DNA from: Clostridia bacterium
GTDB lineage: Bacteria; Bacillota; Clostridia; TANB77; CAG-508
Length of the DNA stretch: 64,000 nt
Assembly: GCA_017533795.1 (NCBI GenBank)
Contig: JAFWIH010000020.1
Coordinates: forward strand, 9,335-73,334
Reading direction: 5' to 3'
The translations under genes were made by a program, and so were the position numbers. The notes beneath the pieces were generated by a model. The model was given only the letters and a program-made list of their open reading frames with translations, was not told where the DNA came from and made no database searches. Positions 3,000-43,762 of this stretch are shown in pieces (the stretch's first letter is position 1; each line of letters starts with the position of its first letter).

Positions 3000-3001
3000 T
3001 T

Positions 3002-9408: not shown

Positions 9409-9417
9409 TGTTGTCTT

Positions 9418-10668: not shown

Positions 10669-10681
10669 TTGAAATTCTCCT

Positions 10682-11884: not shown

Positions 11885-11904
11885 AATATACTATACCTTT
11901 CATT

Positions 11905-12780: not shown

Positions 12781-12798
12781 ACTATATACTCTCCTATC

Positions 12799-13599: not shown

Positions 13600-13637
13600 A
13601 ATTTTTATCGCTCCATTCTTGTTTGTTAAGTAAATTA

Positions 13638-14621: not shown

Positions 14622-14631
14622 CTATTTTGTT

Positions 14632-15618: not shown

Positions 15619-15692
15619 CCACTACACTCCCATGTTATCAGATAGTGTAATTGTATCTTTTATTGGGCTTTTTGTCAATGTTTTTACCTAAT

Positions 15693-20442: not shown

Positions 20443-20964
20443 TTATTCTGCTTCTTTATATTTTCTCTTAACTATTCTTTTCCATTTTTCCTTAAATTTA
20501 AATCTGTTAAAATGATATATCCAAGCAAGAATAATAATTGATATTACAGAGAAAACTTTCGACTGAATCACCTTTACAATTCCACTAACATTTTTAAATT
20601 CTATCAGTTTCCTTCCTATTATGTTTTTCTCTGTCATTTCTGCAGTATCAGGATAATAATTGTTTTCTATTTTTGTTGAAAAATATTTTTTCCCTGTTTC
20701 TGAATCAGTATATATATTATTAATTGCCCCAACTTTTATATGACCATTGTAATAATAAGCAATTGTTTCATTTTGCTGTAAAGAGTTAATATTACCTTCT
20801 CTAGTTATTACCACATTTTTTAGTGGTAGAATTCCTATTCCAAATATATTAAGATATTTTTTCCCTGTAATCATTGTATTAACTAAATAGATAAAATTAT
20901 AAATTATAGCAGTTACTAATATAATATAAAGAATTTTATAAAATATCCTTCTCTTTTGCTTCAT
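20443..20964 (-). CDS. Small bitopic membrane protein (N- and C-terminal TM), last gene of the giant-protein/SipW operon.
   Basis: 173 aa. It overlaps the end of sipW-1 by 29 nt. No recognisable motifs. Confidence 0.45.
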   Translation of the reverse strand: MKQKRRIFYKILYIILVTAIIYNFIYLVNTMITGKKYLNIFGIGILPLKNVVITREGNINSLQQNETIAYYYNGHIKVGAINNIYTDSETGKKYFSTKIENNYYPDTAEMTEKNIIGRKLIEFKNVSGIVKVIQSKVFSVISIIILAWIYHFNRFKFKEKWKRIVKRKYKEAE

Positions 20965-21523
20965 TTTTCTTTTTTACTCTCCTATTATATTTTTTTTCAT
21001 CTAATTGTATTCTAGCAAACAATAGTATTAAAACTACTAATGTAATTATTAAAACTACTATCTGGTTTTCTGCTGCATCCATTACATATCCTAGCCTTGG
21101 TAAAACCATTATTTCTTTCCCATCTACTTGGTCATAGGTTATTTTTTCTTTATCTTCTACATTATTATTGTCACCTTTAGTAACATAATAGCTTGTATTG
21201 TTTTCTTGATCTACCCTAATAATTCTGTGTGTAATTGATTTATTATCTCTATCAAATGTAATAACATCTCCTTCTTTCAAGTCATTCTCTTTAGGTTTTT
21301 TTGTTAAAATAGCATCTCCTTCTTTAATAGAAGGCTCCATACTATTTGTTGTAATTACATATGCCTTATATCCGAATAGACTATAATCATGTATTCTATT
21401 TAAAGAAGAAAAGAATAATAACACAATATTATATATAAGTATAATTAGTATTATATGTAATATTCTTTTGAATGTTCTTGATGTGTTTTTTCTTTTTTCT
21501 ATTGATTCTATATCATATCTCAT
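20936..21523 (-). CDS. sipW: Signal peptidase I, SipW-type (archaeal/ER-type, C-terminal TM), paralog 1.
   Basis: YVITTNSMEPSIKEGDAILTKK catalytic-Ser box. Size 195 aa. C-terminal TM IVVLIITLVVLILLFA. It lies immediately downstream of the giant secreted protein. Confidence 0.75.
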   Translation of the reverse strand: MRYDIESIEKRKNTSRTFKRILHIILIILIYNIVLLFFSSLNRIHDYSLFGYKAYVITTNSMEPSIKEGDAILTKKPKENDLKEGDVITFDRDNKSITHRIIRVDQENNTSYYVTKGDNNNVEDKEKITYDQVDGKEIMVLPRLGYVMDAAENQIVVLIITLVVLILLFARIQLDEKKYNRRVKKKNEAKEKDIL

Positions 21524-21544
21524 ATTATTCCTTTCTCCCTTTTA

Positions 21545-24500
21545 TCATTTTATAACAATATATTCATATGCATCTCCAACAAAGTTGTCACCATCATATA
21601 ATTTGTAAACCATTTTATATGTACCAGATGTCAGGTCATTTTTTAGTTGAAATTGATATGTCATGTTTGATATAGGATTCTCTGAAACCATATATTCTTT
21701 TTCTCTGCTTGTAGGTGTTAATGTGTCTTGCACATAATCTGCCAAATCAACTAATGTGTAAGATTGTGAATATACTCCTGAGTAATCTCTTCTATACAAA
21801 GATACCGCAATTTTAGGATTTGATAGTCCCGATGAATATCCTATATTGCTTGTAATATAGTTATTGCCAAATTTATTCTGTCCAGTTTCTTTGTCTACTA
21901 TTTTATACTGATCTTGTGTTGTAACTTTTAATCCATAAGATGAGTTTATTATTCTTACATCAAGCTCTATCATATCCGAAGCTGTTAGTCCATAATATAT
22001 ACCATCTGATGAACCAAAAGACTCAATTTTTATTTTATAGTCTCCTGTAGCTAGTGTCGTATTGTTTTCAGTATGCATCTTTATTCTAGAAAGTACGTCT
22101 GTTACTTTGTCAGCCACATTAATTCTAGTTGTTCCATCAATTCTTGGATAATATGTTTTTCCGTCTAATACAAAATTTACTCCAAACAAGCTATCACTAC
22201 TTAATCTATTTCCATTGTTGTCATATATACTTATTTTTAAGCCAAGTTTTTTACCAAAATATTGTGTATCATATACACTTTTTGAGTTTACTATTGTCTG
22301 TGTGAATTTTGCATTAGCATTTATATTTAGTACATTTCCTAAATATAATGTTTGAGGTGTTAAAGATGCTTCTAGCTCTATTGTAGCATCCTCATTATTA
22401 TATACATTGTACCTCATAACATCTCTTTGAATACCTAAAACCCCAACTAGTGTTTCATTATCACTATCTCTTAATTCCATTAATACTGAATTACCTTCAA
22501 TATTTGATCCTACATTAGCATCGGCAAAATTAATATGGAATATAAAGTTTTCGTATATTAGGTCCATTTCTGAATTGTAGTATAAATTGCTTGCTTCTGT
22601 CTCATTAAATTCACCATTTGTACTTCCCATTGCTGTAAAATCCGACAGTGGATATACATATTTATTGCTTGCAACATCACTGCTTGTTACAACATAATAA
22701 TAATATTTATTGGTTACCATATCTAGCATAGTTAACTTTGTATTTTCTGGGAAACAATATGGTTCATCAGCCGCGTTTCTAGATACTATAACTCTTTGGA
22801 ATGATGAATAATCCCTGAATTTGCTTGGTTGTGTAGTTACAGCTTCTGGGTCTTGCTCATTTCCTATTATTGTAATATCCTGTTTTGCACTAGGTACAAA
22901 TAATGAGAAATATGTTGAAAATGCACTTTTGCTTGTAATTGTAGTATCTGTTGATGTAAATAACTCAAACTCTTGTCCAGGTGTTATTGCTCCTTCATAA
23001 TAGTCATCTTGGAATAGAGCAGTTGATAAATTTACATTTATCATTATATATGATATTTCATCATTCAAGTCATCAATAGGAGTTAAAACTTGTAACATTA
23101 TGTTTAACTCTCCAAGCTGTTGTTGTACGGTTAAGTTTTGTGAATGATAGAAGCAAAAATTAAGTGTTGGTGTATATGTTGAGTTATCTTTATCATATTC
23201 ATTTTTTCCTGTATATCTGCTTGCTCCATTTTCTGCTATAAAAGTTGTACTTCCATTTCCGGCCCATCCTGTATTACCAGTTCTTATAGATAATCCAAAG
23301 TTAGAATTAGCTTTTGTTCCATCTAGTTCTATTGCTTCTATTGTACTTGGATCAACTAATGAGATACCATTTTTTAGTCCTGATGAAAAACCATACATTA
23401 CAAATTTGGTATTAGGAGTTGAAAATCCTTGCAATAATAGCTCATATGTACCAAGAGTTGCATATTTAGATGCTGTTAAGTCCAAGTCAATTGGAGTTAC
23501 AGCTTTTGCCTCACCAACAGTCCAAATATAGTACAAGTCATCTGGTGGTGTTGTATCTATATAGTCAACTTTTATTGTACCCGCTTCATTATTATCTTCT
23601 TCATTTTCTTTATGTTTTGTATTAGTATAGAATCCGTCAGCTGTTATATCATGATTGTCCATATGTCGTGCTTTTACATAAGAATTTAATATAAAAGTTC
23701 CTTCATTTTCTATTTCATCACCATTTTGATTTGTATATTGATATATACCTGTACTTGTACTTGGATTAGTTTTATTAGAAAATAATCCTAAGAAAAACAT
23801 ACCTTGTACATCGCCATAAGTTGTAGCTTTTTCATTTGTCGCAACATTTAGGTTTTTGCCTTCTAACATATAAATTCTATTGTCAACATTTTTAGTATTT
23901 TCCCCTGTCTCGCGATTAATAGTAACTGTACCTTTTGTTTCTACTCCATTTATATCAACCATGCTATCTATCTCTTTCAAAAGGTTAGCACCATTACACA
24001 AGTACAATGTAGAATTGTTTTTTAATTTTAACTGGTCTATTCTACTTAGTGAAAACTGTACGCTTGAGTATTCGTTTGTTCTATCTGTTGTTCCAGATAA
24101 AGAAAGTGCAGAATTAATTATTGTAACAACTTTTGCTCTTTGTATTGAAATATTACTTTGTGGAGTCTGATAAGTTCCATAATTTTTAATTGTTATTAAA
24201 CTATCACCTGCAGAACTTGAAGCATTTCCTGAGCCAAATATGCTTCCTGTCATTTGAAGCTTGCTGTGTCCATTTCCGTCAATTAATATATTAATACCTT
24301 GTGTTACACTTATGGCTTCAAAGTCGTATATTTCACTTCCTGCTTCGTTTGCCTCTCCTCCTCCAAATACTGTTCCTACAATTTCGATGTCTCCTTTTTC
24401 TAGTGAATTATCGCCTACTGCATCATATCCTATATTTACATTTGCAGTACCATATATTACAGAAGTATTTGCTCCTCCATATACGTTTCCACCAATTGTT

Positions 24501-30706: not shown

Positions 30707-30738
30707 AACTCCAAATTACATTCTTAATCTTATGTTTA

Positions 30739-32319: not shown

Positions 32320-32552
32320 CTATTTTTCTTCCTTTTCTTCTTTACTTACAGATTGTTTTTCCTTTTCTAAGAAGCCTAAGAAATTGCATATTTGATTATA
32401 TAAATTTATTAAGTCGTTAGTATTTTCTTTTTTAAAATTCATAATAAATAACCCCCACGTATTCTTTTTAATTTTATCATATTCATAAAAAAATGTCTAT
32501 ACATTTTTATGTGTTTTTTTGACATTTTTACTTGTAATTTTTTCCTTTTCCA

Positions 32553-32586
32553 AACATAAAAAGAGTAGGAATAAAATCCTACTCTT
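32553..32586 (-). terminator. Rho-independent terminator after the 344-aa TasA-like gene.
   Basis: Stem gagtagga/tcctactc with 6-nt loop, followed on the minus strand by TTTTTAT. Confidence 0.6.
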
Positions 32587-32620
32587 CTAATATATCATAT
32601 TCAATTAATTATTCAATTTG

Positions 32621-33655
32621 TTAAGGTTCTACTACGATTGGATCAATTGTAAATCCTAAATCAAATGTAATATCTGAACCAGATGCTGTGTTTTCACAGT
32701 CAACATCTTGACCTTCAATCCACATATAAATTCTTATTTTTGTAATACCTTCACTTAATGCCATTAACTCTGTTGTACCAATTGTTCCAGCATTAGCTTC
32801 ATCTGCTGCTAATAATAATTTATGTCCAGCTGCTGTTTTGATTGGGTTTGTAATTTGTTGGAAGTAATCTGTACTGTGGTCATTTAGAAGTACTGGTGAT
32901 GCCTTTGGAATAGGTGCTTTAACTCCATAGTATGATAATTGGTTAGCTCCTGTTAAAGCTACATTATGTCCATATATACTGCTTGCTGCGTTTGCACCAG
33001 CTTGTGTATGTACATCATAGTTTGGTTCCCAAATATATGATGTTGTTCCACCTGTTATAGCTTGAATTTGTTCAACTGTACTAGTTAATCCTGCATTACC
33101 TAATACACAGAATGCTACACGAGCTGCATTTTTTAGACCTTTGTCATTAGCTGTTCCTGCTGTTGCTTTATGTGTAACATCAGATCCTTCTGTTAAGTGA
33201 ATTGTTTTTGCTTCATCTAGTTTAAGGAATATATCAAATACTATGTATTTTCCAGATGTTGCATCATCTTCTGCTGTTGCTGATGTATATAATTCATAAT
33301 TACCTGTATCTTCGTTAGCTACAACAGTTCCAAAGTACATTCCCATTCTGTCTCCTGAAACTTCTCCTATTGTTGATACTGGAGCCATTGATGCTGGAAT
33401 AACATTTACCGCATCATCATATGTTGCTGAAGCTCCTTTAATGTCTTCATTTGAAATAACTGCTTTCCAGTTAATACCATCTACAGAAATTTGGATACCT
33501 GTAGATGCTGCTACGTTAACATCAATAGAACTAATTGTTACTGTTCTGTTAGATGTGAACCATGCATAGGTTGATGCAATTAATAAAATTGCTATTAGTA
33601 GTAACACTAAGATTGAAGATTTTACATTTGTTTTTCTTTTACTATTCTTTTTCAT
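32621..33655 (-). CDS. TasA/camelysin-family (peptidase M73-like) secreted protein with a SipW-cognate class signal peptide.
   Basis: N-terminus MKKNSKRKTNVKSSILVLLLIAILLIASTYAWFTSNRTV (compare TasA ...GGTWAAFNDIKS and camelysin ...GGTFAFFSDKE). The C-terminal motif KIRIYMWIEGQDVDC is shared with the other paralogs. Confidence 0.7.
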   Translation of the reverse strand: MKKNSKRKTNVKSSILVLLLIAILLIASTYAWFTSNRTVTISSIDVNVAASTGIQISVDGINWKAVISNEDIKGASATYDDAVNVIPASMAPVSTIGEVSGDRMGMYFGTVVANEDTGNYELYTSATAEDDATSGKYIVFDIFLKLDEAKTIHLTEGSDVTHKATAGTANDKGLKNAARVAFCVLGNAGLTSTVEQIQAITGGTTSYIWEPNYDVHTQAGANAASSIYGHNVALTGANQLSYYGVKAPIPKASPVLLNDHSTDYFQQITNPIKTAAGHKLLLAADEANAGTIGTTELMALSEGITKIRIYMWIEGQDVDCENTASGSDITFDLGFTIDPIVVEP

Positions 33656-33782
33656 AATTTTCTCTCCTTTTATTTCATTTGTATCACAATTGTAAATTAA
33701 TTATACCACTTTTTGAAAAAAAAGTCAACAATTGCAACTACTTGTAAAAAAATTGTTATATTTTAGTAATATTTTTGTAATG

Positions 33783-34610
33783 TTATTCTCCTTCGTTTTC
33801 TTCTATATTATCTTGTTGAGTCTCTGGTTCTTCACTATTTTCTTCTTGGCTTTGTTCTTCGTTTACTTCTTCTTTCGTACCATCTTGTTTAATATGTTCT
33901 TCTACAATATCCATATGCATTTTTATTTCTCCTCCTATAAGATCATCTAAACAATCTGGGTCATCACCTTCAAGATATATTACTATTGTAAATTTGTCTA
34001 TATCTCCAGGTTGGAACTTTTGTCTACACTCAACAAGTACTTCGCTTGCTGAATAAAACTTTTCAGTTCCTTCTTCTGCTTCTCCTGTTGTTTCATTTGG
34101 CCTTGCATATGTTGTTTGTTCTCCATTTAAATATATTCTAACACGTATTGCTTTATCTACATTTTTTATTACATCATCTATGTCTATTTCGTACCAGTAG
34201 TTGACTACATCACTACCTTTGTTTTCTAAATAAAAAGTATATGCTAGATAATTGTCTCCATTATGAGCACCTTCTTGGTCAGAATCTATATTTTCAGGAA
34301 GCCATTTGTAGGAAATATTATCCATGAATTCAACTTTTGTAGCTTTCAGAATTCTTTTATCTTCTTTTTCATCTATATGTTCATACATTATTAACCCACT
34401 TTTTCTCGCGAAATTAGGATCAAGAGATACAGTAAAGTCACCTGCTTCATATACAATTCTTAATATGAAGTATATTATAATTAGAAATAAGGTTATTATC
34501 AATAGTGTTAATTTTACACTTTTGATTCTTCTATCTCTTTCTTTTATTTTTTCTGAATTAAGTTTTACCTGTTCTTTTGTTATTTCATCTTCTTTATTTT
34601 TCTTTTTCAA
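33783..34610 (-). CDS. Membrane-anchored TasA-like paralog. Basic N-terminal tail, one TM, extracellular beta-rich domain and an acidic C-terminal tail.
   Basis: TLLIITLFLIIIYFILRIVYEAGDFTVSLD. The shared family motif FTIVIYLEGDDPDCLDD is present. Confidence 0.55.
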   Translation of the reverse strand: MKKKNKEDEITKEQVKLNSEKIKERDRRIKSVKLTLLIITLFLIIIYFILRIVYEAGDFTVSLDPNFARKSGLIMYEHIDEKEDKRILKATKVEFMDNISYKWLPENIDSDQEGAHNGDNYLAYTFYLENKGSDVVNYWYEIDIDDVIKNVDKAIRVRIYLNGEQTTYARPNETTGEAEEGTEKFYSASEVLVECRQKFQPGDIDKFTIVIYLEGDDPDCLDDLIGGEIKMHMDIVEEHIKQDGTKEEVNEEQSQEENSEEPETQQDNIEENEGE

Positions 34611-34722
34611 TATTTATCACCTCATTTGTTCTGCAATGCAATTTTATTATAACAATATTTTTTTGTCAACAATTGATTTATATAATTTATTATGATAGAA
34701 TTCTTATAAGTTTATATAAAGG

Positions 34723-35334
34723 ATGATTATAGTTATGGATAATAAGAAAAAATTTTTGTTATTACTAGTTTTTATTTTAATATGTGTTTTGATTTATGCA
34801 ATAATACAAATATATGCAAAGTATATTTCTTCTGCTCAAGGAAGTGCCTCTGCCAATGTTGCCAGTTGGGATATAAAGGTAAATAACTTATCTATTAAAA
34901 ACAATACTGATATTTCAAATACTTTAGCTCCCGTCTTTCCAGGAACAGAACATATTGCTAGTGGAATTATAGCTCCTACCGCAGAAGGATACTTTGATTT
35001 AAATTTTGATTTTTCTAATACTGATGTTTCATTTATGTATAATATTTCTTTATCAATAGACCCTGATAGTTCTGTCCAAGACTTAGTTGTAACTGGTTAT
35101 TCTATTGACGATGGAGAAGTAATCTCAATTGTAGATGATACACAGCCAATTTCTGATACTATATTATATGGTAGTAATGTTAATACAAGAAAAATACGTG
35201 TATATATAAAATGGGACGATGACCCTACAACATCTACAATGTCAAATGCTGATGATACATTATCTACTAAATCTGATAATCCTGCATTATATAAAGTAAA
35301 TATTTCATTTACACAAATTACAGATACAAATTAA
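34723..35334 (+). CDS. Small TasA-like secreted paralog (203 aa) with a signal anchor. The only plus-strand gene of the island.
   Basis: FLLLLVFILICVLIYAIIQIYAKYISSAQGSASANVASWDIKVNN. C-terminal family motif KIRVYIKWDDDP. Confidence 0.6.
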   Translation: MIIVMDNKKKFLLLLVFILICVLIYAIIQIYAKYISSAQGSASANVASWDIKVNNLSIKNNTDISNTLAPVFPGTEHIASGIIAPTAEGYFDLNFDFSNTDVSFMYNISLSIDPDSSVQDLVVTGYSIDDGEVISIVDDTQPISDTILYGSNVNTRKIRVYIKWDDDPTTSTMSNADDTLSTKSDNPALYKVNISFTQITDTN

Positions 35335-35360
35335 GAAGTTGTTTTTATACAACTTCTTAA
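35331..35360. terminator. Bidirectional terminator between convergent TasA-like genes.
   Basis: Perfect palindrome ttaagaagttgt-ttttat-acaacttcttaa. It overlaps the stop of 34723..35334 and lies 7 nt before the stop of 35367..36005. Confidence 0.6.
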
Positions 35361-35366
35361 TTTATT

Positions 35367-36005
35367 TTATCCGCCATTTGATTGTTCTGGTTCTCCACTA
35401 GCTTGCGTAGCTTTTAGTAGCAAATTAATTTCTATGCTGTCTTCTCCTGGATTTTCATTGTAAAAGTTATAGGCTTTTCTTCCCCATTCGGTATCTAATT
35501 CATCATTTCCAGATTCATAATCCCATTTTACTGTTATTTTAAAATAACCTGTTCCATTTTCTGCTGCTAAATCAGTCTCATCCTTTTCTATAGATATTTT
35601 AAATGGATAATTATTTGATATTATATTTTCTATATCTTCAGAATTTAGTTCTTCTGAACTTCCTTGAAGAACTTGTCCAATTTCATAATATTCATCCATA
35701 ATTTTTGCAGATCTTACATCATAGCTAAGGCTAGCCTCCATATCTCCTCTGTTGTTTACTTGTATTATTCTTTCAAAGGTTTCCATTCCAGGGAATACTC
35801 TTTCTACAGAAACAGTAACTTCTGAAGTTATTCCTCCTTGATCTGATACAAACTCAACATCCCATGAGCTAACATGAGCTGATAAGTCCATATAAACCTT
35901 TGTAGTATATATAAACCAGGCATATGCATTAAATGCAAATAAAACTATCAATACTAATATATTTCGGATTTTTATTTTTTTCATTATTTTGATAATTTTA
36001 TCCAT
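35367..36005 (-). CDS. Small TasA-like secreted paralog (212 aa) with a SipW-cognate class signal peptide.
   Basis: NILVLIVLFAFNAYAWFIYTTKV...SSWDVEF. C-terminal motif YFKITVKWDYESGND. Confidence 0.65.
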   Translation of the reverse strand: MDKIIKIMKKIKIRNILVLIVLFAFNAYAWFIYTTKVYMDLSAHVSSWDVEFVSDQGGITSEVTVSVERVFPGMETFERIIQVNNRGDMEASLSYDVRSAKIMDEYYEIGQVLQGSSEELNSEDIENIISNNYPFKISIEKDETDLAAENGTGYFKITVKWDYESGNDELDTEWGRKAYNFYNENPGEDSIEINLLLKATQASGEPEQSNGG

Positions 36006-36036
36006 TTATTATCCTCCTTGCTATTTCGGGCTCATT

Positions 36037-36597
36037 TTATTCATCATCATTATCTTCTTTATGAGTTAAGTCATAAACAATATTTCTAATCTGTTTATAT
36101 ATTATTATTCCTATAGGTATAAATATAAAGAAATAGAATATATACATATTTTGAATTACTTTGCCAATATAACTTAAAGTTTTTATTTTACATATTACTT
36201 TACCATATATTTGATTTCCTGTAATTTGTGGATCAGCTTCAAGGTTAGCTATACCTTTTGTAATAAACTTATATGTTCCGTCTTCTTGAGATTTTTCTAT
36301 AACTTGGTGAGTAACAACTCTACCTTTAAAAGTACCTTCTTTTCCTTTATAAACAACATCGTCTCCAACATTAATCTCACTTGGACTAATTTCTTTAGCA
36401 AGTAAAACATCACTTACCAAATATTTAGGCTCCATACTTCCTGTTGCAACAATAAATATTCTGTATCCTCCTAATGAAAGAGAGTTGTCTGATACCCTTT
36501 GTAAGGCTACAACAGTTAACATTAATATAGCAATAACAAAAAGTATAGCATATAAAATATTTCCAATTATTTTTAATCCTTTATGTTCCTTTTTCAT
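36037..36597 (-). CDS. Signal peptidase I, SipW-type, paralog 2.
   Basis: IVATGSMEPKYLVSDVLLAKE. 186 aa. N-terminal TM and C-terminal TM IFYFFIFIPIGIIIY. Confidence 0.75.
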   Translation of the reverse strand: MKKEHKGLKIIGNILYAILFVIAILMLTVVALQRVSDNSLSLGGYRIFIVATGSMEPKYLVSDVLLAKEISPSEINVGDDVVYKGKEGTFKGRVVTHQVIEKSQEDGTYKFITKGIANLEADPQITGNQIYGKVICKIKTLSYIGKVIQNMYIFYFFIFIPIGIIIYKQIRNIVYDLTHKEDNDDE

Positions 36598-36599
36598 AA

Positions 36600-37733
36600 T
36601 TATTTTCCTTCCACTTTACGCGCATATATATCTATGCGACTTTTAAAGATTTTTTGTATTTCTTTAATAACTTCCATTCTTTTGTATTTAAGAACTTCAT
36701 ATCTAGTTGCAACTAGTTGTTTTATTTCTTTTTCTGACAAGTCTAGATTTAAATCAATCATTTTGTCAATCATTTTTTCTAATATTACATCTTGCATCTC
36801 TTGTCTAGATTCTTTTGTTTCAGAATCATCCTCATCCAATGTTTTCATTGTTAAGTACTGAAGCAAAAAGTTTTCATCCATGAGTTTTTTTAGATTTCCA
36901 TTATCTTCATAATTCTTTTTTTCTTCAACATTTGTTGTCTTATCTTCATAGTTATCCCTTAAATAGTCCCATAGTTTCATAGCATATTGAAAGTTTACAT
37001 TTTTTAATATAACATTTGTCTTTTTTATTGGATCTCTAACGAGTAATACTCTATCTTTTTCAAGTGTTTTATATACATCAGATGCTTCCAAACTCATAAT
37101 TTGTCTTTCTAATTCTTCAATATCATTTAAAATTTCTTGTACTTCTTCATCTACTTTATTGCCTTCATTATCAAGAGAAGAATTTAAAGATACTTTAATA
37201 TCTACCTTTTCATCTCCAATTTTTGTATTTCCCTGGTATTCAAAGTTTTTAGTATTTTTTAATTTAGAATCTGTTTTTACTTCTGAATTTCCAGTTATAG
37301 CCTCTTTCCTTTTTTTAATAAATAATTTCATGTTTTGCATTAAAGTATATACAAATCTATTTTCATAAGTACTAAAAGTTTCTTCTTTTCTAACATTTAA
37401 TAATTTTGATGGTGTAACATCACCTGTAACGTCATCTACAGTTTGAATAAGATTTGTGTTTTTTGACAAATGTTTTATAGATTCTACAGTTACTTTTTTA
37501 GTTTGCTCTATTTTCATTATCTCTTCTTCATTTATTATGAAACGATTTGGTTTTCTAAAAATGTTGTCAAGATATGGTATTGTGTCCATCATAACTTGTA
37601 TCCATTCTAAGTCTCTAGCAACAGATTTTTTATCTAGTTTTACATTAAGCTCTGTTGATGATTTCTTCATGAAGTCTCTAGCTCTTTTAGGTTCTGTTCT
37701 TTCATACAAATTAATAATTTCTAATTCTTCCAT
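36600..37733 (-). CDS. Cytoplasmic hypothetical protein with central coiled coil. Candidate partner of the McrB-like ATPase (McrC-like role unproven).
   Basis: 377 aa with no TM segment. Coiled-coil segment EEVQEILNDIEELERQIMSLEAS. Its stop is 2 nt from the sipW-2 start. Confidence 0.45.
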   Translation of the reverse strand: MEELEIINLYERTEPKRARDFMKKSSTELNVKLDKKSVARDLEWIQVMMDTIPYLDNIFRKPNRFIINEEEIMKIEQTKKVTVESIKHLSKNTNLIQTVDDVTGDVTPSKLLNVRKEETFSTYENRFVYTLMQNMKLFIKKRKEAITGNSEVKTDSKLKNTKNFEYQGNTKIGDEKVDIKVSLNSSLDNEGNKVDEEVQEILNDIEELERQIMSLEASDVYKTLEKDRVLLVRDPIKKTNVILKNVNFQYAMKLWDYLRDNYEDKTTNVEEKKNYEDNGNLKKLMDENFLLQYLTMKTLDEDDSETKESRQEMQDVILEKMIDKMIDLNLDLSEKEIKQLVATRYEVLKYKRMEVIKEIQKIFKSRIDIYARKVEGK

Positions 37734-37748
37734 TATACGACCTCTACT

Positions 37749-39275
37749 CTATGTTAATTTCTTAAGTCTTAACAAGTACTCTATACATTCTTTCATTTTG
37801 TTTTTTCCAAAAGTTTTGTCCAAAAAGCTTATATATGGATCTATTTCATCTCTAATATAAGCTATATTTAATTGTTCAAATTTTCTTAAAATCTTCTTAG
37901 CAATAAAGTAATCTACTCCGTCTACCTCATCTCCACCGCAAGCAACATATACTGGTACAAATTTTTTCATGTGTGCTACTATACGGTTACCAAAAGCTAT
38001 ACGAAAATGTTGTATAACATAGTTATCCATTTCCTCTATTTTATCGAGTGTATCTTGAGATATTGGATTTTCTTGCATTGCCGTTTTAAATAGATTATCT
38101 AAATATGAAAAATTAATATCTTGTGCTTCTGTATCAACTGGATCAAATGGAACACCCTTATCATTAATGTCTATAGGCATTGCTCTATCATAAACTTTAT
38201 CTGTAACAGCAAATGTAGAATCGTCATTGTTGATTGTTCCTATATACCACATATTTGCAGGGACTCTGATTTTTCCACCAATAATTTTTTTAGGATCTGT
38301 CTTCCAACTGTTTGGAACAAGCTCTATAATCCATTCATCTCTATTTGGCATTTCCAAAATAGAAAGCATTTCTGCAAAGTAATATTCAACACGTGACAAG
38401 TTCATCTCGTCTAGTATTACTGTATATACCTCATCAACATATCCTGCAATATACATTTCTTTAAGCATTTCAGTTTCATTAAATTTCTTAGTAAATTCGT
38501 TAAAATATCCAAACATATCTGTTCTGTCTCTCCAAGATGGCTGAACAGATGCAACACATGAATCATGCTTCATAAATTTTCCCCATGCATAGGCAAGAGA
38601 TGTTTTACCTGTACCAGAAATACCTTGAAGAATAACAAGTTTTGTTGACGCTAGCCCTGATATAAATATTCTCATCATTTCTTCTTTATAAAATAGACCT
38701 AGTTTTGATGCTGCAAAATTCCTGAAATTTTCACATAATTCTGGCAACGTAAATGAATTTCCATAATCTTGGCTTTTATAATTTTCATATTCTTCATCAA
38801 TTAATGCCAATTTTGAAAATCTTTGTCCTTGGTTTTCATCTTGTTCTTCTTGATTATTCATATTAGCTTCTTCTGTAGGAGATTCACCCGGTTTTAATCC
38901 TAATTGTGATACTTTCATTGCTAAAATTTCTTCTTTTTCTTTAACTAATTGTGCAACTTTATTATTTAATGTAGCAATCTCTTCCATAAGGTCGTCTTGT
39001 TCAACAGCTTGTTTTCTAAATTTTAAATATTTTCTTATTAGTAAATAAATTAACACAAATATTAATACTAATGTTAATATTAAACACAATATTGCTATTC
39101 CAACTAAAACCCATTCAGACATAGATAAGTCATCTTTGTATGCATCAACTACATTCTGATATGATTTTATATCTAATATTTGTTTAAATCCATTTCCAAA
39201 TCCTTTTAGAATAGTAATAATCCCTTTAAAGAATTGTCCTAGGAACTCATATAAAAATCTTGTAAATGTCTCCAT
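37749..39275 (-). CDS. Membrane-anchored McrB-family AAA+ (GTPase-like) protein. N-terminal segment, one TM, coiled coil and a McrB-like NTPase domain.
   Basis: TM VLVGIAILCLILTLVLIFVLIYLLI followed by RKYLKFRK (positive-inside). Walker A LVILQGISGTGKTSLAYA. Walker B/McrB signature VILDEMNLSRVEYYFAEML (compare McrB DEINRANLSKVFGEL). Confidence 0.65.
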   Translation of the reverse strand: METFTRFLYEFLGQFFKGIITILKGFGNGFKQILDIKSYQNVVDAYKDDLSMSEWVLVGIAILCLILTLVLIFVLIYLLIRKYLKFRKQAVEQDDLMEEIATLNNKVAQLVKEKEEILAMKVSQLGLKPGESPTEEANMNNQEEQDENQGQRFSKLALIDEEYENYKSQDYGNSFTLPELCENFRNFAASKLGLFYKEEMMRIFISGLASTKLVILQGISGTGKTSLAYAWGKFMKHDSCVASVQPSWRDRTDMFGYFNEFTKKFNETEMLKEMYIAGYVDEVYTVILDEMNLSRVEYYFAEMLSILEMPNRDEWIIELVPNSWKTDPKKIIGGKIRVPANMWYIGTINNDDSTFAVTDKVYDRAMPIDINDKGVPFDPVDTEAQDINFSYLDNLFKTAMQENPISQDTLDKIEEMDNYVIQHFRIAFGNRIVAHMKKFVPVYVACGGDEVDGVDYFIAKKILRKFEQLNIAYIRDEIDPYISFLDKTFGKNKMKECIEYLLRLKKLT

Positions 39276-39293
39276 ATGCTTTTAATACCTCTT

Positions 39294-40286: not shown

Positions 40287-40324
40287 TTATTCACATCCTC
40301 TCTATTCCAAAAAACAGTATATCT

Positions 40325-41278
40325 CTAAATACTGTTAATTGTTAAAACCATAGAATTACTACTATTTGGATAGCTATAATTATGTGTTGTATCCACTTTG
40401 TAAAATCTTAAACTTTTACTTGAAATAGCATCTACAGTTACTGTAAATTCATTTATATAAGTCTTACCTGCTATTGTTGTTGTATGTATATTGGTAGCTT
40501 CTCTATATATTTCGTTTGTCATATCTATTAATACAACATTAGGATCAAATCCTATTGTAACAATTGCAGATGAGCATTTTTCTTGATTTTCTGGTGATAA
40601 AGATAAATATGTATCTATATCTATCTTTTTATTTACTTGATAAGTTGTATCGTCTACTACAAATTGTTCTCTTACAGTATAATATGATAGTGTATTTGTA
40701 ATTCTTAAATCCATGTATGGATTATTAGCAGCATCTGTTATTTCATATGTTACATTTTCCTTACCTACTACAAGCGTAAATCTACCTTTTAATTTTTTTG
40801 TATATTCTGTTGTAGATGTTGCTTCTATTTCTACAGTTACTTTATCACCCGTATCTAATTGTGTGTTTGGGGTAATAGTAAGTGTAAAAAAGTCTGTATT
40901 TGTATTTGAATATATTGTTCCTGACTGTTTGCTTAACTGACAAATTGCATTATCAGTTGTGCAATTATATGTTATATTATAGCCTATATCATATGATGTA
41001 GCTTTTAAGTTATTTAATCTACTATTCATATTTATAATAATAGAATAGTCATCAACGCCAGACCAATTATCTATTTGGTACACAGCCGTATTTGCTTCTA
41101 ATTTATCACTATAGAAATAGAATTCCTTACTTCTTAAGAAAAAATCACTTACATTATTAGTTACATATCTTGCCAATACAACAACAAAAGATACAATAAA
41201 TAGTAATATTATTATTAAAATTAGTAGTTGCTTGTTTTTATATATAAATTGATTTTCTCTCATATCAATTCCTCTCAT
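40325..41278 (-). CDS. Secreted beta-rich protein with N-terminal signal anchor (SipW-substrate candidate).
   Basis: LLILIIILLFIVSFVVVLARYVTNNVSDFF. Rich in T/N/S/Y. Confidence 0.5.
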   Translation of the reverse strand: MRGIDMRENQFIYKNKQLLILIIILLFIVSFVVVLARYVTNNVSDFFLRSKEFYFYSDKLEANTAVYQIDNWSGVDDYSIIINMNSRLNNLKATSYDIGYNITYNCTTDNAICQLSKQSGTIYSNTNTDFFTLTITPNTQLDTGDKVTVEIEATSTTEYTKKLKGRFTLVVGKENVTYEITDAANNPYMDLRITNTLSYYTVREQFVVDDTTYQVNKKIDIDTYLSLSPENQEKCSSAIVTIGFDPNVVLIDMTNEIYREATNIHTTTIAGKTYINEFTVTVDAISSKSLRFYKVDTTHNYSYPNSSNSMVLTINSI

Positions 41279-41282
41279 AATT

Positions 41283-41879
41283 TTAAGTTGTTGTATATTG
41301 TCTTGATTCTACTTTTATTTCTATAGCCTCTATTATATCTTGATAGTTTTCTGTATTATAATTTGGTGGAAAATATACCACTAGTTGATATGTATTTGTT
41401 TTAGGTTCTCTATATAATAGTTCCTCTGTTTCAGTAGTCATAGTTCTAAAATATGTTTCATCTTCATCTTGCAATATTTCATTTGTTTTTGTTATATCTA
41501 CAGCATTATTGTCTGTATAGTTTTGATTCTTATATAAATAATATGTTAATGGTAAATTCGTTGTAGTTCTAATTGTTAAATCGTATGTTAAATCAATTTC
41601 AGCGCTTTGGCTTCCATCTTGGTTTCCTATTGTAAAAGTATATACATATACATTATTTTGTGGTAATATTGTTCCTAAATTGAGCGTCATAGTTTGATAA
41701 TCTTCTTTGAATAAATAAAATGCTATATCAATTTCAGCATCTGTAGAAGTCTCACTTTCATATTTTGCAAGAATAAGAGAAAAAATTCTTAAGATAATCA
41801 TACAGCACATAATTAATATTATTAACTTTGCATATAAAGTTTTTGTTCTATTATTCATCCAATTTTTCATCCTTTGCAT
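41283..41879 (-). CDS. Secreted protein with N-terminal signal anchor (SipW-substrate candidate).
   Basis: LIILIMCCMIILRIFSLILAKYESETSTDAEI. The start overlaps the sipW-3 stop by 1 nt. Confidence 0.5.
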   Translation of the reverse strand: MQRMKNWMNNRTKTLYAKLIILIMCCMIILRIFSLILAKYESETSTDAEIDIAFYLFKEDYQTMTLNLGTILPQNNVYVYTFTIGNQDGSQSAEIDLTYDLTIRTTTNLPLTYYLYKNQNYTDNNAVDITKTNEILQDEDETYFRTMTTETEELLYREPKTNTYQLVVYFPPNYNTENYQDIIEAIEIKVESRQYTTT

Positions 41880-42385
41880 TACTTTTTGGAGAATACATAA
41901 ATAAAATGCTTAGAAGTAAAATTACAATTATTATTAGTCCGAAGTATTTGTGGAGTAAGAAGTATTTTTCTCCATATTCCAACCTTAGGAACTATATAAA
42001 TTACTTTCCCCAATACTTGATTTTTTAAAATGCTTCTATCTTCGCTATTATTTGCATCTCCTTTTGTAATCAATTCTTCTTGTTTAATTTCTATAAGCCT
42101 ATGTGTTATAAAATCATTTCTGTCTTTATACACAATTATGTCATTCTCTTTTATATTATCATTAATTTTTACTATAACAACGTCGCCTATTTCAATAGTA
42201 TTAGACATACTTCCTGTTGCTACTTCAAAAAAAGTATATCCAAACATATTTGCATATTCTTTTTTTAATATTTTTATTTGAACTATATAATAAATTCCAA
42301 GTATCATTATTATTGCAACAATAAATAACAATATGTTTAGAATAATTTCTACTATTTTACTTTTCTTTATATGTTTATTAGTCAT
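41879..42385 (-). CDS. Signal peptidase I, SipW-type, paralog 3.
   Basis: EVATGSMSNTIEIGDVVIVK. 168 aa with N-terminal TM. Confidence 0.7.
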   Translation of the reverse strand: MTNKHIKKSKIVEIILNILLFIVAIIMILGIYYIVQIKILKKEYANMFGYTFFEVATGSMSNTIEIGDVVIVKINDNIKENDIIVYKDRNDFITHRLIEIKQEELITKGDANNSEDRSILKNQVLGKVIYIVPKVGIWRKILLTPQILRTNNNCNFTSKHFIYVFSKK

Positions 42386-42413
42386 ATATTTTCCCCTGTA
42401 TCATCCCTCTAAT

Positions 42414-43053
42414 TTAAGGATTTTCTACATTTTCTACATATTCAGAAATTGTTTCACCTAAATATTGTGAAACATGAACAGTAATAGGAATATGTAGCTT
42501 AGGATTGCTAGTTGCTCCTATAGAAATATCTTGAGTTGAGTCTAATTCATTATCAACCCATTGTATGCTTATTTTTATGTTATTAGTTATTCCATTTTTG
42601 ATTTTATTTAATGGAATTATTGCAGTATAAGTATTTTCTCCAGTTTTAGTTAATGTGTTATTATCAATTGTTTCAACAATATTATTTATTTGTATATTTT
42701 CATTTGTCATATTTTCTGTATTTAAGCTTATATCATACCTAACTGCTACATCTGTATCAGTAGGATTTATAGCAATTTCAAAATCCCCTGAAAGTCCGCG
42801 GTGCTATATTTCCTTCTTTAACATGCGAACTTCCATCAATATTAATTTGGTCTACTGTAAAGCTGGTTTCTATTCCCCTCGAAATTTCTGTGCCATTTAT
42901 ATAAATGTTCCATTTTCCTTTTTCAAATCGAGCATTTCCATTCATTTCACTATAAAACACAGCATAAATGTGTATTATTTCGTAAATTAAAAATCCAATA
43001 ATAATACACATACATACCAAAATTAATGTTTTAATATTTTTTTTGTTTTTCAT
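42414..43053 (-). pseudogene. TasA-like paralog split by a frameshift near 42780-42800. The two halves are ORFs 42778..43053 and 42414..42710.
   Basis: The upstream half ends ...GNIAPRTFRGF*. In the -1 frame it continues ...HRGLSGDFEIAINPTDTDVAVRYDISL...KISIQWVDNELD. These align to one intact paralog (34723): GIIAPTAEGYFDLNFDFSNTDVSFMYNISL...KIRVYIKWDDDP. An unusual GC-rich ccgcgg lies at the junction. Confidence 0.6.
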
Positions 43054-43062
43054 TAATTACCT

Positions 43063-43575
43063 CTAATTATTCTTTGACTCTCTAATCTCTGTTACAACTA
43101 CAGTAATTTGATAGATGAAAGCTAATAATGAAGGCATTACAATTAAGAATAAGAATCCCCATTTAGATTCTAGTACAGATAAAATTCCTCCAACTGTTGG
43201 TATAACTTTAGCGCCATCTACTGTACCTATAACATATTGACTTGATTTTTTTAAACTTCCTTCAAATGTATATGTTGTTTCTGTTTCTGTAACTTTTTCC
43301 ATTGCTTCTACAGTACCTAATTTCACATCAATTTGTGTATCTCCCTTTTCATAAAAGAAAGCTTTTCTTCCAGTTCTAGCTTTTACACTTTTATCAACTA
43401 TTACTAAATCTCCCTTTTTAAATCTTGGTTCTAATGAATTGTCAGTAATAAGTAATAGAGAATTGTTACCAAATTCTGTAACCTTATAATCATTGTATGA
43501 TAATAGGCACACCGTTACAAATATAGCTATAACAGCATATACAATAAATAAAATGTTTGAAATTGCTTTTTTCAT
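43063..43575 (-). CDS. Signal peptidase I, SipW-type, paralog 4, first gene of the long minus-strand operon.
   Basis: LITDNSLEPRFKKGDLVIVDK. 170 aa. N-terminal TM and C-terminal TM FLFLIVMPSLLAFIYQITVVV. Confidence 0.65.
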   Translation of the reverse strand: MKKAISNILFIVYAVIAIFVTVCLLSYNDYKVTEFGNNSLLLITDNSLEPRFKKGDLVIVDKSVKARTGRKAFFYEKGDTQIDVKLGTVEAMEKVTETETTYTFEGSLKKSSQYVIGTVDGAKVIPTVGGILSVLESKWGFLFLIVMPSLLAFIYQITVVVTEIRESKNN

Positions 43576-43735: not shown

Positions 43736-43762
43736 AATTTTGAGTTATTGTGGAGGGTACAA

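Follow-up and report, generated by a model that had tools for sequence, protein, structure and literature searches.

What does a bacterial locus build when SipW-type signal peptidases are interleaved in it with N-terminally anchored secreted proteins, a giant surface protein and an McrBC-like pair? This question is raised by a 23 kb island at positions 20443-43575 of the window, by which we mean the whole 64,000-nt stretch of Clostridia DNA analysed, and all ORFs of this island were found where the initial annotation had placed them (Table 1). More than 15 kb of it codes for secreted structural-type proteins. The earlier view, that several genes here are dedicated to the biogenesis of surface proteins or of a fibre, is supported: an expanded SipW set and a likewise expanded set of N-anchored beta-sandwich proteins lie beside the giant, in an order conserved in about 40 loci. 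The accompanying claim that no system of such composition had been described does not quite hold, given that signal-peptidase proteins associated with an McrC homologue and an FtsB-like-fused McrB GTPase already bear the name CoCoPALM (PMC11090510). On balance we lean towards reading the island as a CoCoPALM-type locus, a dedicated export, processing and assembly machine for a cell-surface filament, coupled to a membrane-anchored McrBC-derived GTPase motor.

Table 1. Features of the island, with positions in the window and strand.
Feature	Position	Strand	Description
A173	20443..20964	-	Degenerate SipW homologue lacking the Ser box; 29-nt overlap with B195
B195	20936..21523	-	Signal peptidase I of SipW type, catalytic; next gene downstream of C3053
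C3053	21545..30706	-	Giant surface protein: N-terminal membrane segment, acidic stalk, Gly/Asn/Thr-rich solenoid with 24-residue repeats
D526	30739..32319	-	Cytoplasmic, K/E-rich
Terminator-like hairpin	32559..32588	-	12 bp and T-run, just past the E344 stop codon
E344	32621..33655	-	Putative major fibre subunit; N-terminal signal ..STYAWFT(S/A)N; invariant YMW.EGQD.DCEN.ASG
Promoter-like site	33700..33728	-	TTGACT, 17 nt, TG-n-TATAAT (extended -10), upstream of E344; consensus match only
F275	33783..34610	-	E344 paralogue; charged N-tail of ~27 aa, membrane segment 28-57, acidic C-tail
G203	34723..35334	+	Small paralogue, ..IYAKY.., N-terminal helix and beta-sandwich; opposite strand
15-bp hairpin	35328..35363	.	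Between convergent G203 and H212; candidate bidirectional terminator; consensus match only
H212	35367..36005	-	Small N-anchored beta-sandwich paralogue, ..NAYAWF..; closes the long operon
I186	36037..36597	-	SipW-type signal peptidase I; 76.0 bits to TIGR02228
J377	36600..37733	-	McrC N-terminal (DUF2357) protein; C-terminal half helical, probably coiled-coil
K508	37749..39275	-	Membrane-anchored McrB-type AAA+ GTPase: membrane segment, probable coiled coil, GTPase domain
L330	39294..40286	-	Conserved cytoplasmic protein, always directly upstream of K508; syntenic in 34 loci
M317	40325..41278	-	Larger N-anchored protein (..LARYVTN); hydrophobic segment 11-42
N198	41283..41879	-	Small N-anchored protein (..LAKYESE) of the G/P/H family; hydrophobic segment 12-40
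O168	41879..42385	-	Catalytic SipW-type signal peptidase I; 70.3 bits to TIGR02228
P	42414..43053	-	Small beta-sandwich paralogue of G203; N-terminal ...IYAVFYSE; one-base frameshift at ~42798
Q170	43063..43575	-	Non-catalytic SipW homologue (pseudo-peptidase); membrane segments at both termini; opens the long operon

The nine genes from 43575 down to 36037 are indeed as tightly spaced as had been claimed, from a 1-nt overlap to 38 nt by their ORF coordinates, and since H212 lies a further 31 nt on, beyond 36037, the run comprises ten genes. Gene order is kept across ~40 species-level loci (dozens of species-level MAGs), with K, J, L, M, I and H invariably contiguous (34-39 species-level loci). 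Two modules, F-E-D-SipW-giant and Q-P-O-N-M-L-K-J-I-H-G, occur separately in some MAGs, and a subset of Bacilli-labelled MAGs carries the former without K/J within 10 kb upstream, so that the motor may not be obligatory for the fibre genes. The flanks consist of housekeeping genes (holA, murB, IleRS, MetRS, PNP), no mobility genes were found among them, and such a setting fits a core structure. The carriers are many uncultured gut Firmicutes, every one of them an uncultured MAG, and the filament is a predicted one.

Five SipW homologues are encoded, three of catalytic type and two without catalytic residues, in place of the four peptidases first counted. Those at 20936, 36037 and 41879 pass the TIGR02228 cut-off of 51.85 bits (B195 with 102.8 bits, next to 104.2 for NF046067) and keep Ser, His and Asp; the one at 43063 falls below it and has no His, and a fifth, at 20443, had been overlooked. 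In B195 the SMEP, THR and GDNN...D boxes are all there, and in related loci a SipW gene always adjoins the giant gene. I186 retains Ser, His and the second Asp with its GD box reading GI, its family conserving SM.P, TH and TKG..N...DP, while TGSM, ITHR and TKGDANN..D are conserved in the O168 family. Q170, present in 40 loci, reaches 25.2 bits with TIGR02228 and 29.8 with NF046067, both under the cut-offs; despite this low score, its hhalign match to the I186 SipW family (98.9%, 180 columns) marks it as a true SipW homologue. It has no His at all; across its family a C-terminal LESKWGFL..IV.P is conserved, but not Ser or His. A173 scores 24.2 bits (TIGR02228 model positions 3-147), matches B195 by BLASTP at E 7.5e-6 and has the SMEP box deleted in the alignment. 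Judging from these residues, Q170 and A173 are catalytically dead, with conservation across loci established for Q170 only.

One N-terminal hydrophobic segment each is found in C3053, E344, F275, G203, H212, M317, N198 and P, which makes them plausible clients, but the model for SipW-cognate signals, TIGR04088 (cut-off 19 bits), matches the E family only. E344 itself scores 16.1 bits, under the cut-off, and 22 of 26 E-family members match at E<=0.1, also below it, TIGR04088 being the only NCBIfam model that recurs in this family; none of 20 H-family members and none of 28 giant-protein N-termini match. The N-anchored small proteins do not form one set of five paralogues sharing (I/V)x(I/V)Y..W.G.D.DC, as had been suggested. 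Profile-profile comparison (hhalign) divides them into two families, E344 with F275, and G203 with the frameshifted P, H212, N198 and probably M317; paralogy holds within each, whereas the ..DC motif is confined to E and F, and G, H and P have in common only a Trp and an acidic cluster. N-terminal profile similarities between the families cover 23-62 columns and may be driven mainly by hydrophobic composition.

E and F align over 209 columns (95.9%), and the F275 family, which keeps EGDDP.C, lies invariably directly upstream of E in 74 loci; F275 is a candidate membrane-anchored base subunit. The best matches of the predicted E344 structure are Sulfolobus thread and TasA fibre subunits, both weak (Foldseek best E=0.016); the G203 model matches generic jelly-rolls only, and no island protein matches Pfam Peptidase_M73/TasA or TapA. 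Residues 25-52 of the E344 model, between the membrane helix and the core, are of low confidence, as would be expected of an unpaired donor strand. The promoter-like site upstream, of a kind not enriched overall in this AT-rich DNA, is followed by the ribosome-binding site AAAGGAGAG, and a hairpin and then a T-run occur in the E-D spacer (145-390 nt) of 49 of 53 related loci, as a raw count. From these signals, E344 looks separately and strongly expressed, as is usual for a major subunit that polymerises.

In the second family, P aligns with G203 at 100% (E 5.5e-39). The initial annotation rightly called one small paralogue frameshifted: an additional base at ~42798, within CCGCGG, breaks P in two (local DNA GCACCGCGGACTT), and tblastn with intact homologues (~205-219 aa) spans two frames that meet between IAP and GLSG. 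H212 matches G203 (95%, 156 columns) and P (95%, 188 columns), its family conserving AWF, W48, PGM, N.G and W..E.G.D..DT.WG; N198, syntenic in 37 loci, matches G203 (95.6%, 90 columns) and P (95.5%, 138 columns). M317 aligns with N198 (85.9%, 153 columns) and G203 (71%) and by these profiles probably belongs to the G/N family, if distantly; Pfam and NCBIfam searches with it gave no match. The NCBI start of G203 is 34735 (199 aa).

The 3053-aa giant was rightly taken for a beta-helical protein, in that 18 [FY]GG[GS]N motifs at residues 1452-2076, spaced mostly by 24, are compatible with a beta-solenoid; Pfam and PDB sequence searches gave no match. Its hydrophobic segment covers residues 5-32 (..IEIRAF..), and the close lineage shows IAFxNSRAEK in the N-terminal alignment. 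D526, probably coiled-coil, is placed between E344 and the giant gene in all of its 57 loci, has no hydrophobic segment and matched no family, PADLOC included.

The most unusual component had been overlooked, the McrBC-like pair having been taken for anonymous cytoplasmic proteins. In the PDB, K508 matches McrB of E. coli (6ut6, E 6.5e-5), with Walker A (GISGTGKTS) and Walker B (ILDEMN) aligned. Its NxD-type signature is INNDDS, of which NNDD lies opposite NHDE in a CoCoNuT-type CnuB encoded on a Deinococcus plasmid; K508 and this CnuB share 40% identity (E 2e-58). Of the three proteins called cytoplasmic in the operon, J377 and L330 do lack a hydrophobic segment, but K508 has one at residues 49-86, with weak FtsL matches over 57-134, and by this domain layout a membrane anchor has replaced its DNA-binding domain. 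J377 carries DUF2357 (PF09823, E 8.1e-15, residues 24-162) and adjoins K508 in 39 of 39 loci having it; no nuclease was matched in Pfam, no D...(D/E)xK is conserved in a 38-sequence alignment, and its profile found nothing in the PDB. On these matches, K508 and J377 are McrBC-derived. L330 matched nothing in Pfam, NCBIfam, PADLOC or the PDB, and searches of the whole locus with Pfam, NCBIfam and PADLOC turned up no effector domain, be it nuclease, HEPN or another.

The fibre is best read as TasA-superfamily-like with GTPase-coupled assembly, a mechanism that we infer from the sequence-level steps just given. The eight anchored proteins would enter the membrane via their single hydrophobic segment with its terminal aromatic motif (YAWF, YAKY, LAKY, LARY, IRAF), and B195, I186 and O168, each adjoining particular clients, would free those clients from the segment, while Q170 and A173 may bind client segments uncut, as assembly or anchoring factors. 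E344, with its own promoter-like site, strong ribosome-binding site and terminator, would be the major subunit, polymerising probably by donor-strand complementation, the mode of TasA and archaeal threads, upon a base of F275 that keeps its cytoplasmic tail and membrane anchor; G203, H212, N198, P and M317 would be minor or adaptor subunits and the beta-solenoid giant the distal adhesin. K508 would assemble into a hexamer like that of McrB, tethered to the membrane through its FtsB/FtsL-like membrane segment and coiled coil, the McrC N-domain of J377 would plug this ring and stimulate GTP hydrolysis, and the two, with L330 and perhaps D526, may power or gate either assembly or extrusion across the wall. 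DNA would not be cut, because no nuclease is present. We know of no filament system with a McrB-type GTPase, and thus such a motor role would be without precedent.

The same genes could instead make an envelope complex and no fibre, a reading that we hold to be unlikely. The small beta-sandwich proteins, still anchored by uncleaved helices, would then form a platform or sheath for exporting the giant adhesin and keeping it in place; no more than one or two clients would be cut by the SipW paralogues, and K508, J377 and L330 would serve this export as an AAA+ chaperone or quality-control unit. In the G203 model, residues 3-32 form one unbroken helix, predicted with confidence and joined by a short linker to the beta-sandwich, so that such segments could be permanent anchors and not cleaved signals; TIGR04088 matches neither the giant nor any of H, G, N, M and P, F275 has a cytoplasmic tail and anchor, and a SipW gene is invariably the neighbour of the giant gene. 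This reading sits poorly with the SipW-cognate-like signal of the E family, the fibre subunits heading the E344 structural matches, the apparently separate and strong expression of E344, and three catalytic peptidases, which exceed the need of one client.

Rather improbable is a conflict or anti-phage system built on a McrBC-derived GTPase core as in CoCoNuT relatives, with the surface proteins as phage-adsorption sensors, decoys or exported effectors. Among annotated proteins, the relatives nearest to the GTPase domain of K508, at 35-40% identity, do belong to CoCoNuT-type systems on plasmids, beside PP2C/kinase and large AAA helicase genes, and the frameshift in P is a frequent fate in dispensable accessory systems; the 108-bit match to the candidate-defence model PDC-M26A of PADLOC, however, spans the AAA+ core alone, 312-437 of the 724 profile positions, effector domains went undetected, E344 relatives occur on none of 72,556 plasmids, and the bulk of secreted structural-type sequence, the housekeeping neighbourhood and a gene order held across dozens of species differ from typical patchy defence islands. 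That two unrelated neighbours are seen, an ordinary TasA/SipW-type matrix locus with an embedded, decayed McrBC restriction remnant, is disfavoured and very improbable. The separate occurrence of the two modules and the missing nuclease of J377, readable as decay, would suit it, but no other protein of the locus is as strongly conserved as K508 (top 120 relatives at least 78% identical), which has all NTPase motifs intact and its DNA-binding domain swapped for an anchor, K and J always lie between M-L on one side and I186 with H212 on the other in a single tightly spaced operon, and a census of McrBC systems independently came upon the same association (PMC11090510).

Among known systems, CoCoNuT resembles the island in the GTPase domain of K508, with its NxD+D motif. 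With TasA the island has SipW homologues in common, and the likeness of the E344 model is weak, without a Pfam TasA match, as is the structural match of this model to the Sulfolobus thread. TasA-superfamily loci reportedly bring together SPase I, SPase-accessory proteins, minor subunits and tip components (10.64898/2026.01.04.697558). CoCoPALM was named in three sentences by Bell et al. (eLife 2024), left uncharacterised there, and its peptidases were called likely pilus-assembly factors (PMC11090510). This combination, named in the literature but never studied, is exactly the association found in the island.

The best-supported reading of the island, which we hold with moderate confidence, is that of a surface-filament system of the type that Bell et al. 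(eLife 2024, PMC11090510) named CoCoPALM, an association of an McrB GTPase fused to an FtsB-like region with an McrC homologue and signal peptidases, whose analysis was deferred in that work. No later paper analysing CoCoPALM was found in our literature search, and the searched supplementary files of the eLife article contain no text on CoCoPALM, SipW or pili. As a kind, CoCoPALM is essentially uncharacterised. The ORF positions of the initial annotation were borne out, and the window proteins correspond by exact match to NCBI entries MBR31634xx (locus tags IKF17_049xx). The window has a G+C content of about 27%, the genes flanking the island are housekeeping genes, and no mobility genes were seen around it.

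Island genes and neighbouring features with their positions in the window
Feature	Position	Strand	Description
Polysaccharide cluster	144-17356	minus	Long cell-wall/surface polysaccharide cluster just outside the island: several family-2 and family-4 glycosyltransferases, Wzt-type ABC ATPase with Wzt_C, DUF2142 membrane protein, DUF7657/DUF7654 protein
Downstream flank	<20.4 kb		Purine-nucleoside phosphorylase, TPR protein, cell-wall polysaccharide cluster
A173	20443-20964	minus	SipW homologue
B195	20936-21523	minus	SipW homologue
E344	32621-33655	minus	Anchored client protein
G203	34723-35334	plus	Anchored client protein
Ten-gene run	43575-35367	minus	Q170, P, O168, N198, M317, L330, K508, J377, I186, H212, in this order
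I186	36037-36597	minus	SipW homologue
O168	41879-42385	minus	SipW homologue
P	42414-43053	minus	Anchored client protein, frameshifted
Q170	43063-43575	minus	SipW homologue
Upstream flank	>43.6 kb		SleB-like wall hydrolase, holA, glycogen debranching enzyme, CofD-like gene, murB, IleRS, MetRS
R311	43748-44683	plus	Left out of the system
SleB-like protein	44694-45434	minus	PG_binding_1 and Hydrolase_2 domains; just past R311, about 1.1 kb from the island's first gene
768-aa protein	56461-58767	minus	No Pfam match; amid tRNA-synthetase genes
654-aa protein	60901-62865	minus	Second surface-type protein, GLUG motif; amid tRNA-synthetase genes

Gaps within the run of ten genes extend from a 1-nt overlap up to 38 nt, with J377 lying 15 nt downstream of K508 and I186 starting 2 nt past J377. 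The last gene of the run, H212, is convergent with G203 across a 15-bp hairpin; F275 and E344 follow, and then a 301-nt spacer with a terminator-like hairpin and the genes of the cytoplasmic protein D526, the giant surface protein C3053 (3053 aa), B195 and A173. By consensus match, E344 is preceded by a promoter-like site (TTGACT-17-TGnTATAAT) and a ribosome-binding site, AAAGGAGAG, and followed by a 12-bp hairpin with a T-run; a hairpin with a T-run recurs in the long E-D spacer of 49 of 53 loci, as counted without a chance control. This combination of signals is the pattern expected of an abundant major subunit. G203 is the sole island gene on the opposite strand, and since its inverted orientation, convergent with H212 across their common hairpin, is kept in nearly every related locus (about 40), separate regulation of this one minor subunit is suggested. 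As for the neighbours, the polysaccharide cluster could serve in glycosylating or embedding a surface structure, and the SleB-like protein could be a spore-cortex or wall hydrolase, which might aid the passage of a fibre through peptidoglycan. R311 was left out of the system because its homologues occur in just 2 of 83 related loci, and at a different position.

The assignment to CoCoPALM turns on K508 and J377, a McrBC-like pair that had gone unrecognised among the three "cytoplasmic proteins" of the operon, one of which, K508, has a membrane segment at residues 49-86; J377, L330 and D526 have no hydrophobic segment. K508 matches E. coli McrB (6ut6) at E 6.5e-5, and the Walker A (GISGTGKTS) and Walker B (ILDEMN) motifs coincide in the alignment. 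A coiled-coil AAA protein of 800 aa on a Deinococcus plasmid shares 40% identity (E 2e-58) with the GTPase domain of K508; it is followed there by a 705-aa DUF2357 protein, the two forming a CnuB/CnuC pair of CoCoNuT type. The K508 sequence INNDDS aligns with ANHDET of the Deinococcus CnuB, that is, NxD and then D or E, and it is this shortened signature with the following D or E that defines the NxD branch of McrB (PMC11090510). In place of a DNA-binding domain, the N-terminus of K508 has a conserved region, the membrane segment and a helical stretch. Weak matches to the FtsL family (E 0.0086 and 0.088) cover residues 57-134, there is no Pfam match to FtsB/DivIC in K508, and the region is a candidate for the FtsB-like N-terminus with coiled coil of the CoCoPALM description. 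K508 is the most conserved island protein, and J377, which matches PF09823 (DUF2357, the McrC N-terminal domain) at E 8.1e-15, stands beside it in all 39 loci. For a nuclease in J377 there was no Pfam match, no conserved D..(D/E)xK among 38 sequences and no PDB profile match, though J377 may contain an inactivated nuclease fold. I186 comes after J377, four more SipW homologues are present in the island, and this arrangement is conserved. By the published description (NxD McrB GTPase, DUF2357 protein, signal peptidases), the island would, as judged from its sequence, be of CoCoPALM type. Two further leads were dropped: the sole PADLOC match, of K508 to PDC-M26A, is partial and covers the AAA+ core only, so it was not counted as membership, and the "McrB" of a C. 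perfringens BsaA preprint is merely an E. coli strain genotype.

The Ser, His and Asp residues of SipW-type peptidases have established roles in SipW, Sec11 and archaeal SPases. Against TIGR02228 (archaeal/ER-type signal peptidase I, SipW), whose curated whole-protein cut-off is 51.85 bits, B195 (102.8), I186 (76.0) and O168 (70.3) pass, and Q170 (25.2) and A173 (24.2) do not. B195 and O168 contain Ser (SMxP box), His (THR box) and Asp (GDNN...D box), and I186 keeps Ser, His and the second Asp, its GD box reading GI; the three have in common the SMxP Ser, the TH(R/Q) His and the Asp six residues past the GD position, and in the O168 and I186 families the catalytic Ser, His and Asp are conserved at family level. 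Q170 is a true SipW homologue (hhalign 98.9% over 180 columns against the I186 family) with zero histidines, and its family conserves neither the catalytic Ser nor His, its C-terminal membrane segment being strongly conserved. A173 matches B195 by BLASTP at E 7.5e-6 and lacks the whole Ser box. We count three active enzymes and two pseudo-enzymes, because the former pass the cut-off with their catalytic residues and the latter, Q170 and A173, are homologues predicted to be inactive from the loss of the Ser/His dyad. Of the four signal peptidases in the initial annotation, B195, I186 and O168 stand as catalytic, with the dyad in place, and Q170 does not; the number itself has to be raised to five homologues, since A173, at 24 bits and without a Ser box, had been missed. 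In several loci from MAGs labelled Bacilli (L007, L017, L019, L035, L063, L064 and L080), a giant-adjacent SipW of about 400 aa lies between the D526 and giant homologues, with one catalytic SipW domain, an acidic linker and a C-terminal domain of about 240 aa; it is no fusion of B195 with A173, having a single SipW domain and an extension unrelated to any island protein.

The eight client proteins have exactly one N-terminal hydrophobic segment each. Family profiles built from homologues in the 83 related loci and compared by hhalign divide the small paralogs, taken earlier as a single family of five, into two families: E344 and F275 (95.9% over 209 columns), and G203, P, H212 and N198, with M317 as a probable distant member (G with P 100%; G with H, H with P, G with N and P with N about 95% over 90-188 columns; N with M 86%). 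Between the two families the alignment is limited to the N-terminal 23-62 columns, at 67-93%, values that hydrophobic composition may inflate. The C-terminal "DC" motif ascribed to these paralogs holds for E, where it is invariant (YMW.EGQD.DCEN.ASG), and for F (EGDDP.C); what G, H and P share there is no more than a Trp with acidic residues and DT after it. The acidic stretch at residues ~310-326 of E344, W.EGQD.DCEN.ASG with a single invariant Cys, and ~213-220 of F275 looks like a candidate metal (Ca2+) site; in cannulae and AbpX, calcium is reported to trigger donor-strand polymerisation (10.64898/2026.01.04.697558). P has one extra base near 42798, within CCGCGG and outside any homopolymer run, and intact orthologues have about 205 aa. 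One minor subunit may truly have been pseudogenised in this MAG, or the frameshift may stem from an error of assembly.

Of the SipW-cognate signal that the initial annotation saw on the island substrates, the model search detects a sub-threshold form in the E family and none in the rest. TIGR04088 (SipW-dependent-type signal peptide, cut-off 19 bits) gives 16.1 bits for E344; at E<=0.1 it matches 22 of 26 E-family members (best 0.0019), no other model recurs in that family, and we take the signal as real but sub-threshold. The model has no match in the G203, H212, F275, M317, N198, P and C3053 of the window, in any of 20 H-family members or in any of 28 giant-protein N-termini. As to the proposed kinship with TasA, PF12389 (Peptidase_M73) matches no island protein at E<=0.1 and none of 10 distant E-family representatives, the E-family profile did not recover TasA from PDB sequences, and TapA (TIGR04087) matches no island protein, with one stray match (E 0.078) among the 28 giant-protein N-termini of related loci. 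A link through distant members was sought in vain: the best 150 E-family representatives listed are all full-length and E-like, and Pfam gave no domain in ten of the most distant ones listed. The AlphaFold2 model of E344 (pLDDT 74) has a membrane helix, a linker and a beta-sandwich, and its first Foldseek match in the PDB is the thread subunit 7pnb, at a non-significant E=0.016; in that of G203 (pLDDT 77) the helix at 3-32 is predicted with confidence, and the beta-sandwich matches generic jelly-rolls only. The one donor-strand hint is the linker of the monomeric E344 model, a low-confidence, beta-prone segment at residues 25-52. A TasA-superfamily-like E344 is, on this model, a reasonable lead rather than an established membership, and for the small family such a likeness is no more than a possibility. 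Across all 19 island proteins, Pfam and NCBIfam gave only peptidase, DUF2357 and weak McrB, FtsL and TIGR04088 matches, and of the E-, J- and L-family profiles, the giant protein and K508, searched against PDB sequences, K508 alone was matched (to McrB). An impression of a degenerate EAL domain at the C-terminus of L330 was not upheld, Pfam giving no EAL match.

In a scan of one genome per species, relatives of E344 were encoded in 295 genomes; the 80 loci kept all come from uncultured organisms or metagenome bins, whose labels are Clostridia, Bacilli, Erysipelotrichaceae, Mollicutes or Tenericutes and, for a few bins, others. None of 72,556 plasmids carries a relative of E344. That the island might be a chance juxtaposition of genes is highly improbable in our view. 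The order Q-P-O-N-M-L-K-J-I-H-G(-)-F-E-D-giant is found in about 40 of 83 loci and comprises two modules, F-E-D-SipW-giant and Q-P-O-N-(E')-M-L-K-J-I-H-G, whose arrangement is permuted in some genomes. Unrelated genes lie upstream of the F-E-D-SipW-giant module in a subset labelled Bacilli, so the K/J motor may be encoded elsewhere or be dispensable there. Three loci (L066, L070, L071) show a compact arrangement, L-F-E-SipW-K-J-E-E-?-SipW, in which three E-type genes occur and G, H, N, P and M were not detected; this may be a minimal form of the system, convenient for experiments.

A conflict or anti-phage system, in which the McrBC-like pair would act in defence, is unlikely. The sequence kinship of the pair with CoCoNuT proteins speaks for it; the features of McrBC type IV restriction were not detected, there being no PD-(D/E)xK domain in J377 by sequence and a membrane segment with a helical region at the N-terminus of K508 in place of a DNA-binding domain. 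Somewhat less unlikely, yet still improbable, is a membrane-anchored envelope or export complex that forms no fibre, made of the same anchored clients, peptidases and GTPase. For the preferred surface-filament reading, we infer client cleavage, donor-strand polymerisation, anchoring by F275, a platform role of the dead peptidases and a motor role of K/J.

Beyond this, we put forward, tentatively and as a proposal that may well prove wrong, that CoCoPALM is a class of NTP-driven filament-assembly machine in monoderm bacteria that had not been recognised before and that evolved independently. In this machine a hexamer of the membrane-anchored McrB-type GTPase, plugged by the nuclease-less McrC-like protein, would convert GTP hydrolysis into mechanical work across the membrane, and a donor-strand-linked fibre, made of beta-sandwich subunits processed by SipW and with the giant adhesin at its tip, would be polymerised, extruded or retracted by this work, the dead SipW paralogues serving as assembly platforms that hold subunits. 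Such a solution would be an analogue of type IV pili that takes its motor from a restriction enzyme and its scaffold from signal peptidases. We know of no surface-fibre role for the McrBC AAA+ family, and if the reading is right, its restriction-enzyme motor has been re-used for building or operating a cell-surface fibre; an energy-coupled branch would be added to the otherwise passive TasA/thread/Abp donor-strand filaments, and the paired active and dead SipW paralogues would be a clear bacterial case of pseudo-protease recruitment. Nor is the locus rare: the E344 (putative major-subunit) family comprises more than 3,000 clusters at 50% identity, and at least 1,000 contigs bear the E344 orthologue P0083, three of them being one human-gut metagenome contig and two contigs of about 1.7 Mb from NCBI genome assemblies. 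Given this wide occurrence, gut Firmicutes that are abundant, uncultured and small in genome may have in the fibre a main organelle of adhesion or aggregation, which would matter for colonisation and for contact with the host. The CoCoPALM name and the TasA/SipW logic are already known; the full parts list was not found in the literature searched, and since CoCoPALM was named but left unanalysed, this locus provides a concrete, fully parsed and testable example.

Compared with known systems, the island resembles CoCoPALM in its McrB-like NxD GTPase with N-terminal membrane segment and putative coiled coil, in the adjacent DUF2357 McrC homologue with helical/coiled-coil regions and no nuclease, and in the signal-peptidase genes of the same locus, a likeness judged from a three-sentence description that does not mention three active and two dead SipW paralogues, two beta-sandwich client families, a giant solenoid protein, L330 or D526. 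With CoCoNuT (CnuB/CnuC), the nuclease-bearing sister group of the NxD McrB branch, it shares the 40% identity of K508, the aligned NxD(D/E) and the DUF2357 neighbour; CoCoNuT proteins, however, are cytoplasmic, of about 800 aa, with long coiled coils, nucleases or helicases and predicted RNA targeting, whereas K508 is membrane-anchored in a locus with no detected nuclease. Like B. subtilis tapA-sipW-tasA and B. cereus sipW-tasA/calY, the island sets dedicated archaeal-type signal peptidases beside secreted beta-sandwich clients, and TIGR04088 gives a sub-threshold likeness of the N-terminus of E344 to the TasA-type signal; in contrast to tapA-sipW-tasA, it has no Peptidase_M73 or TapA match. 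Where that operon has one peptidase and two clients, the island has five peptidase homologues and eight clients, and in addition a giant adhesin and a pair of NTPase proteins. To our knowledge, TasA assembly needs no NTPase.

The clostridial sipW-bsaA-bsaB-bsaC operon of C. perfringens, compared by description, is likewise a SipW operon, there with two remote TasA homologues; its polymer is reported to be membrane-anchored and linked by donor-strand exchange, and BsaA secretion to be tied to type IV pilus proteins (PMC7395162; 10.1101/2024.11.04.621531). It differs in having one SipW, the vWA protein BsaC, no giant solenoid and no link to a McrBC-like GTPase. To Saci_0406 threads (7pnb), AbpA/AbpX, Tafi and the cannulae CanA/CanX there is a fold-level likeness only, at 8-11% identity, and the E-family profile gave no sequence-level link to archaeal TasA-superfamily filaments in the PDB; none of the archaeal loci has been reported with a McrBC-like motor. 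Type IV pili and type II secretion pseudopili offer a functional analogy, with a major and several minor subunits that each bear an N-terminal hydrophobic helix, dedicated peptidases and a membrane-associated hexameric NTPase. There is no homology: prepilin peptidases are aspartic enzymes, those of the island SipW-type Ser/His enzymes predicted to act after the hydrophobic segment; the heads of the island subunits are beta-sandwiches, and the NTPase is an AAA+ McrB-type GTPase instead of a PilB/GspE ATPase. TasA-superfamily loci have been reported to combine SPase I, SPase-accessory proteins, minor subunits and tip components (10.64898/2026.01.04.697558), and by analogy the island would have this same layout of SPase I, accessory proteins, major and minor subunits and tip, to which a nuclease-less GTPase module derived from McrBC would have been added.
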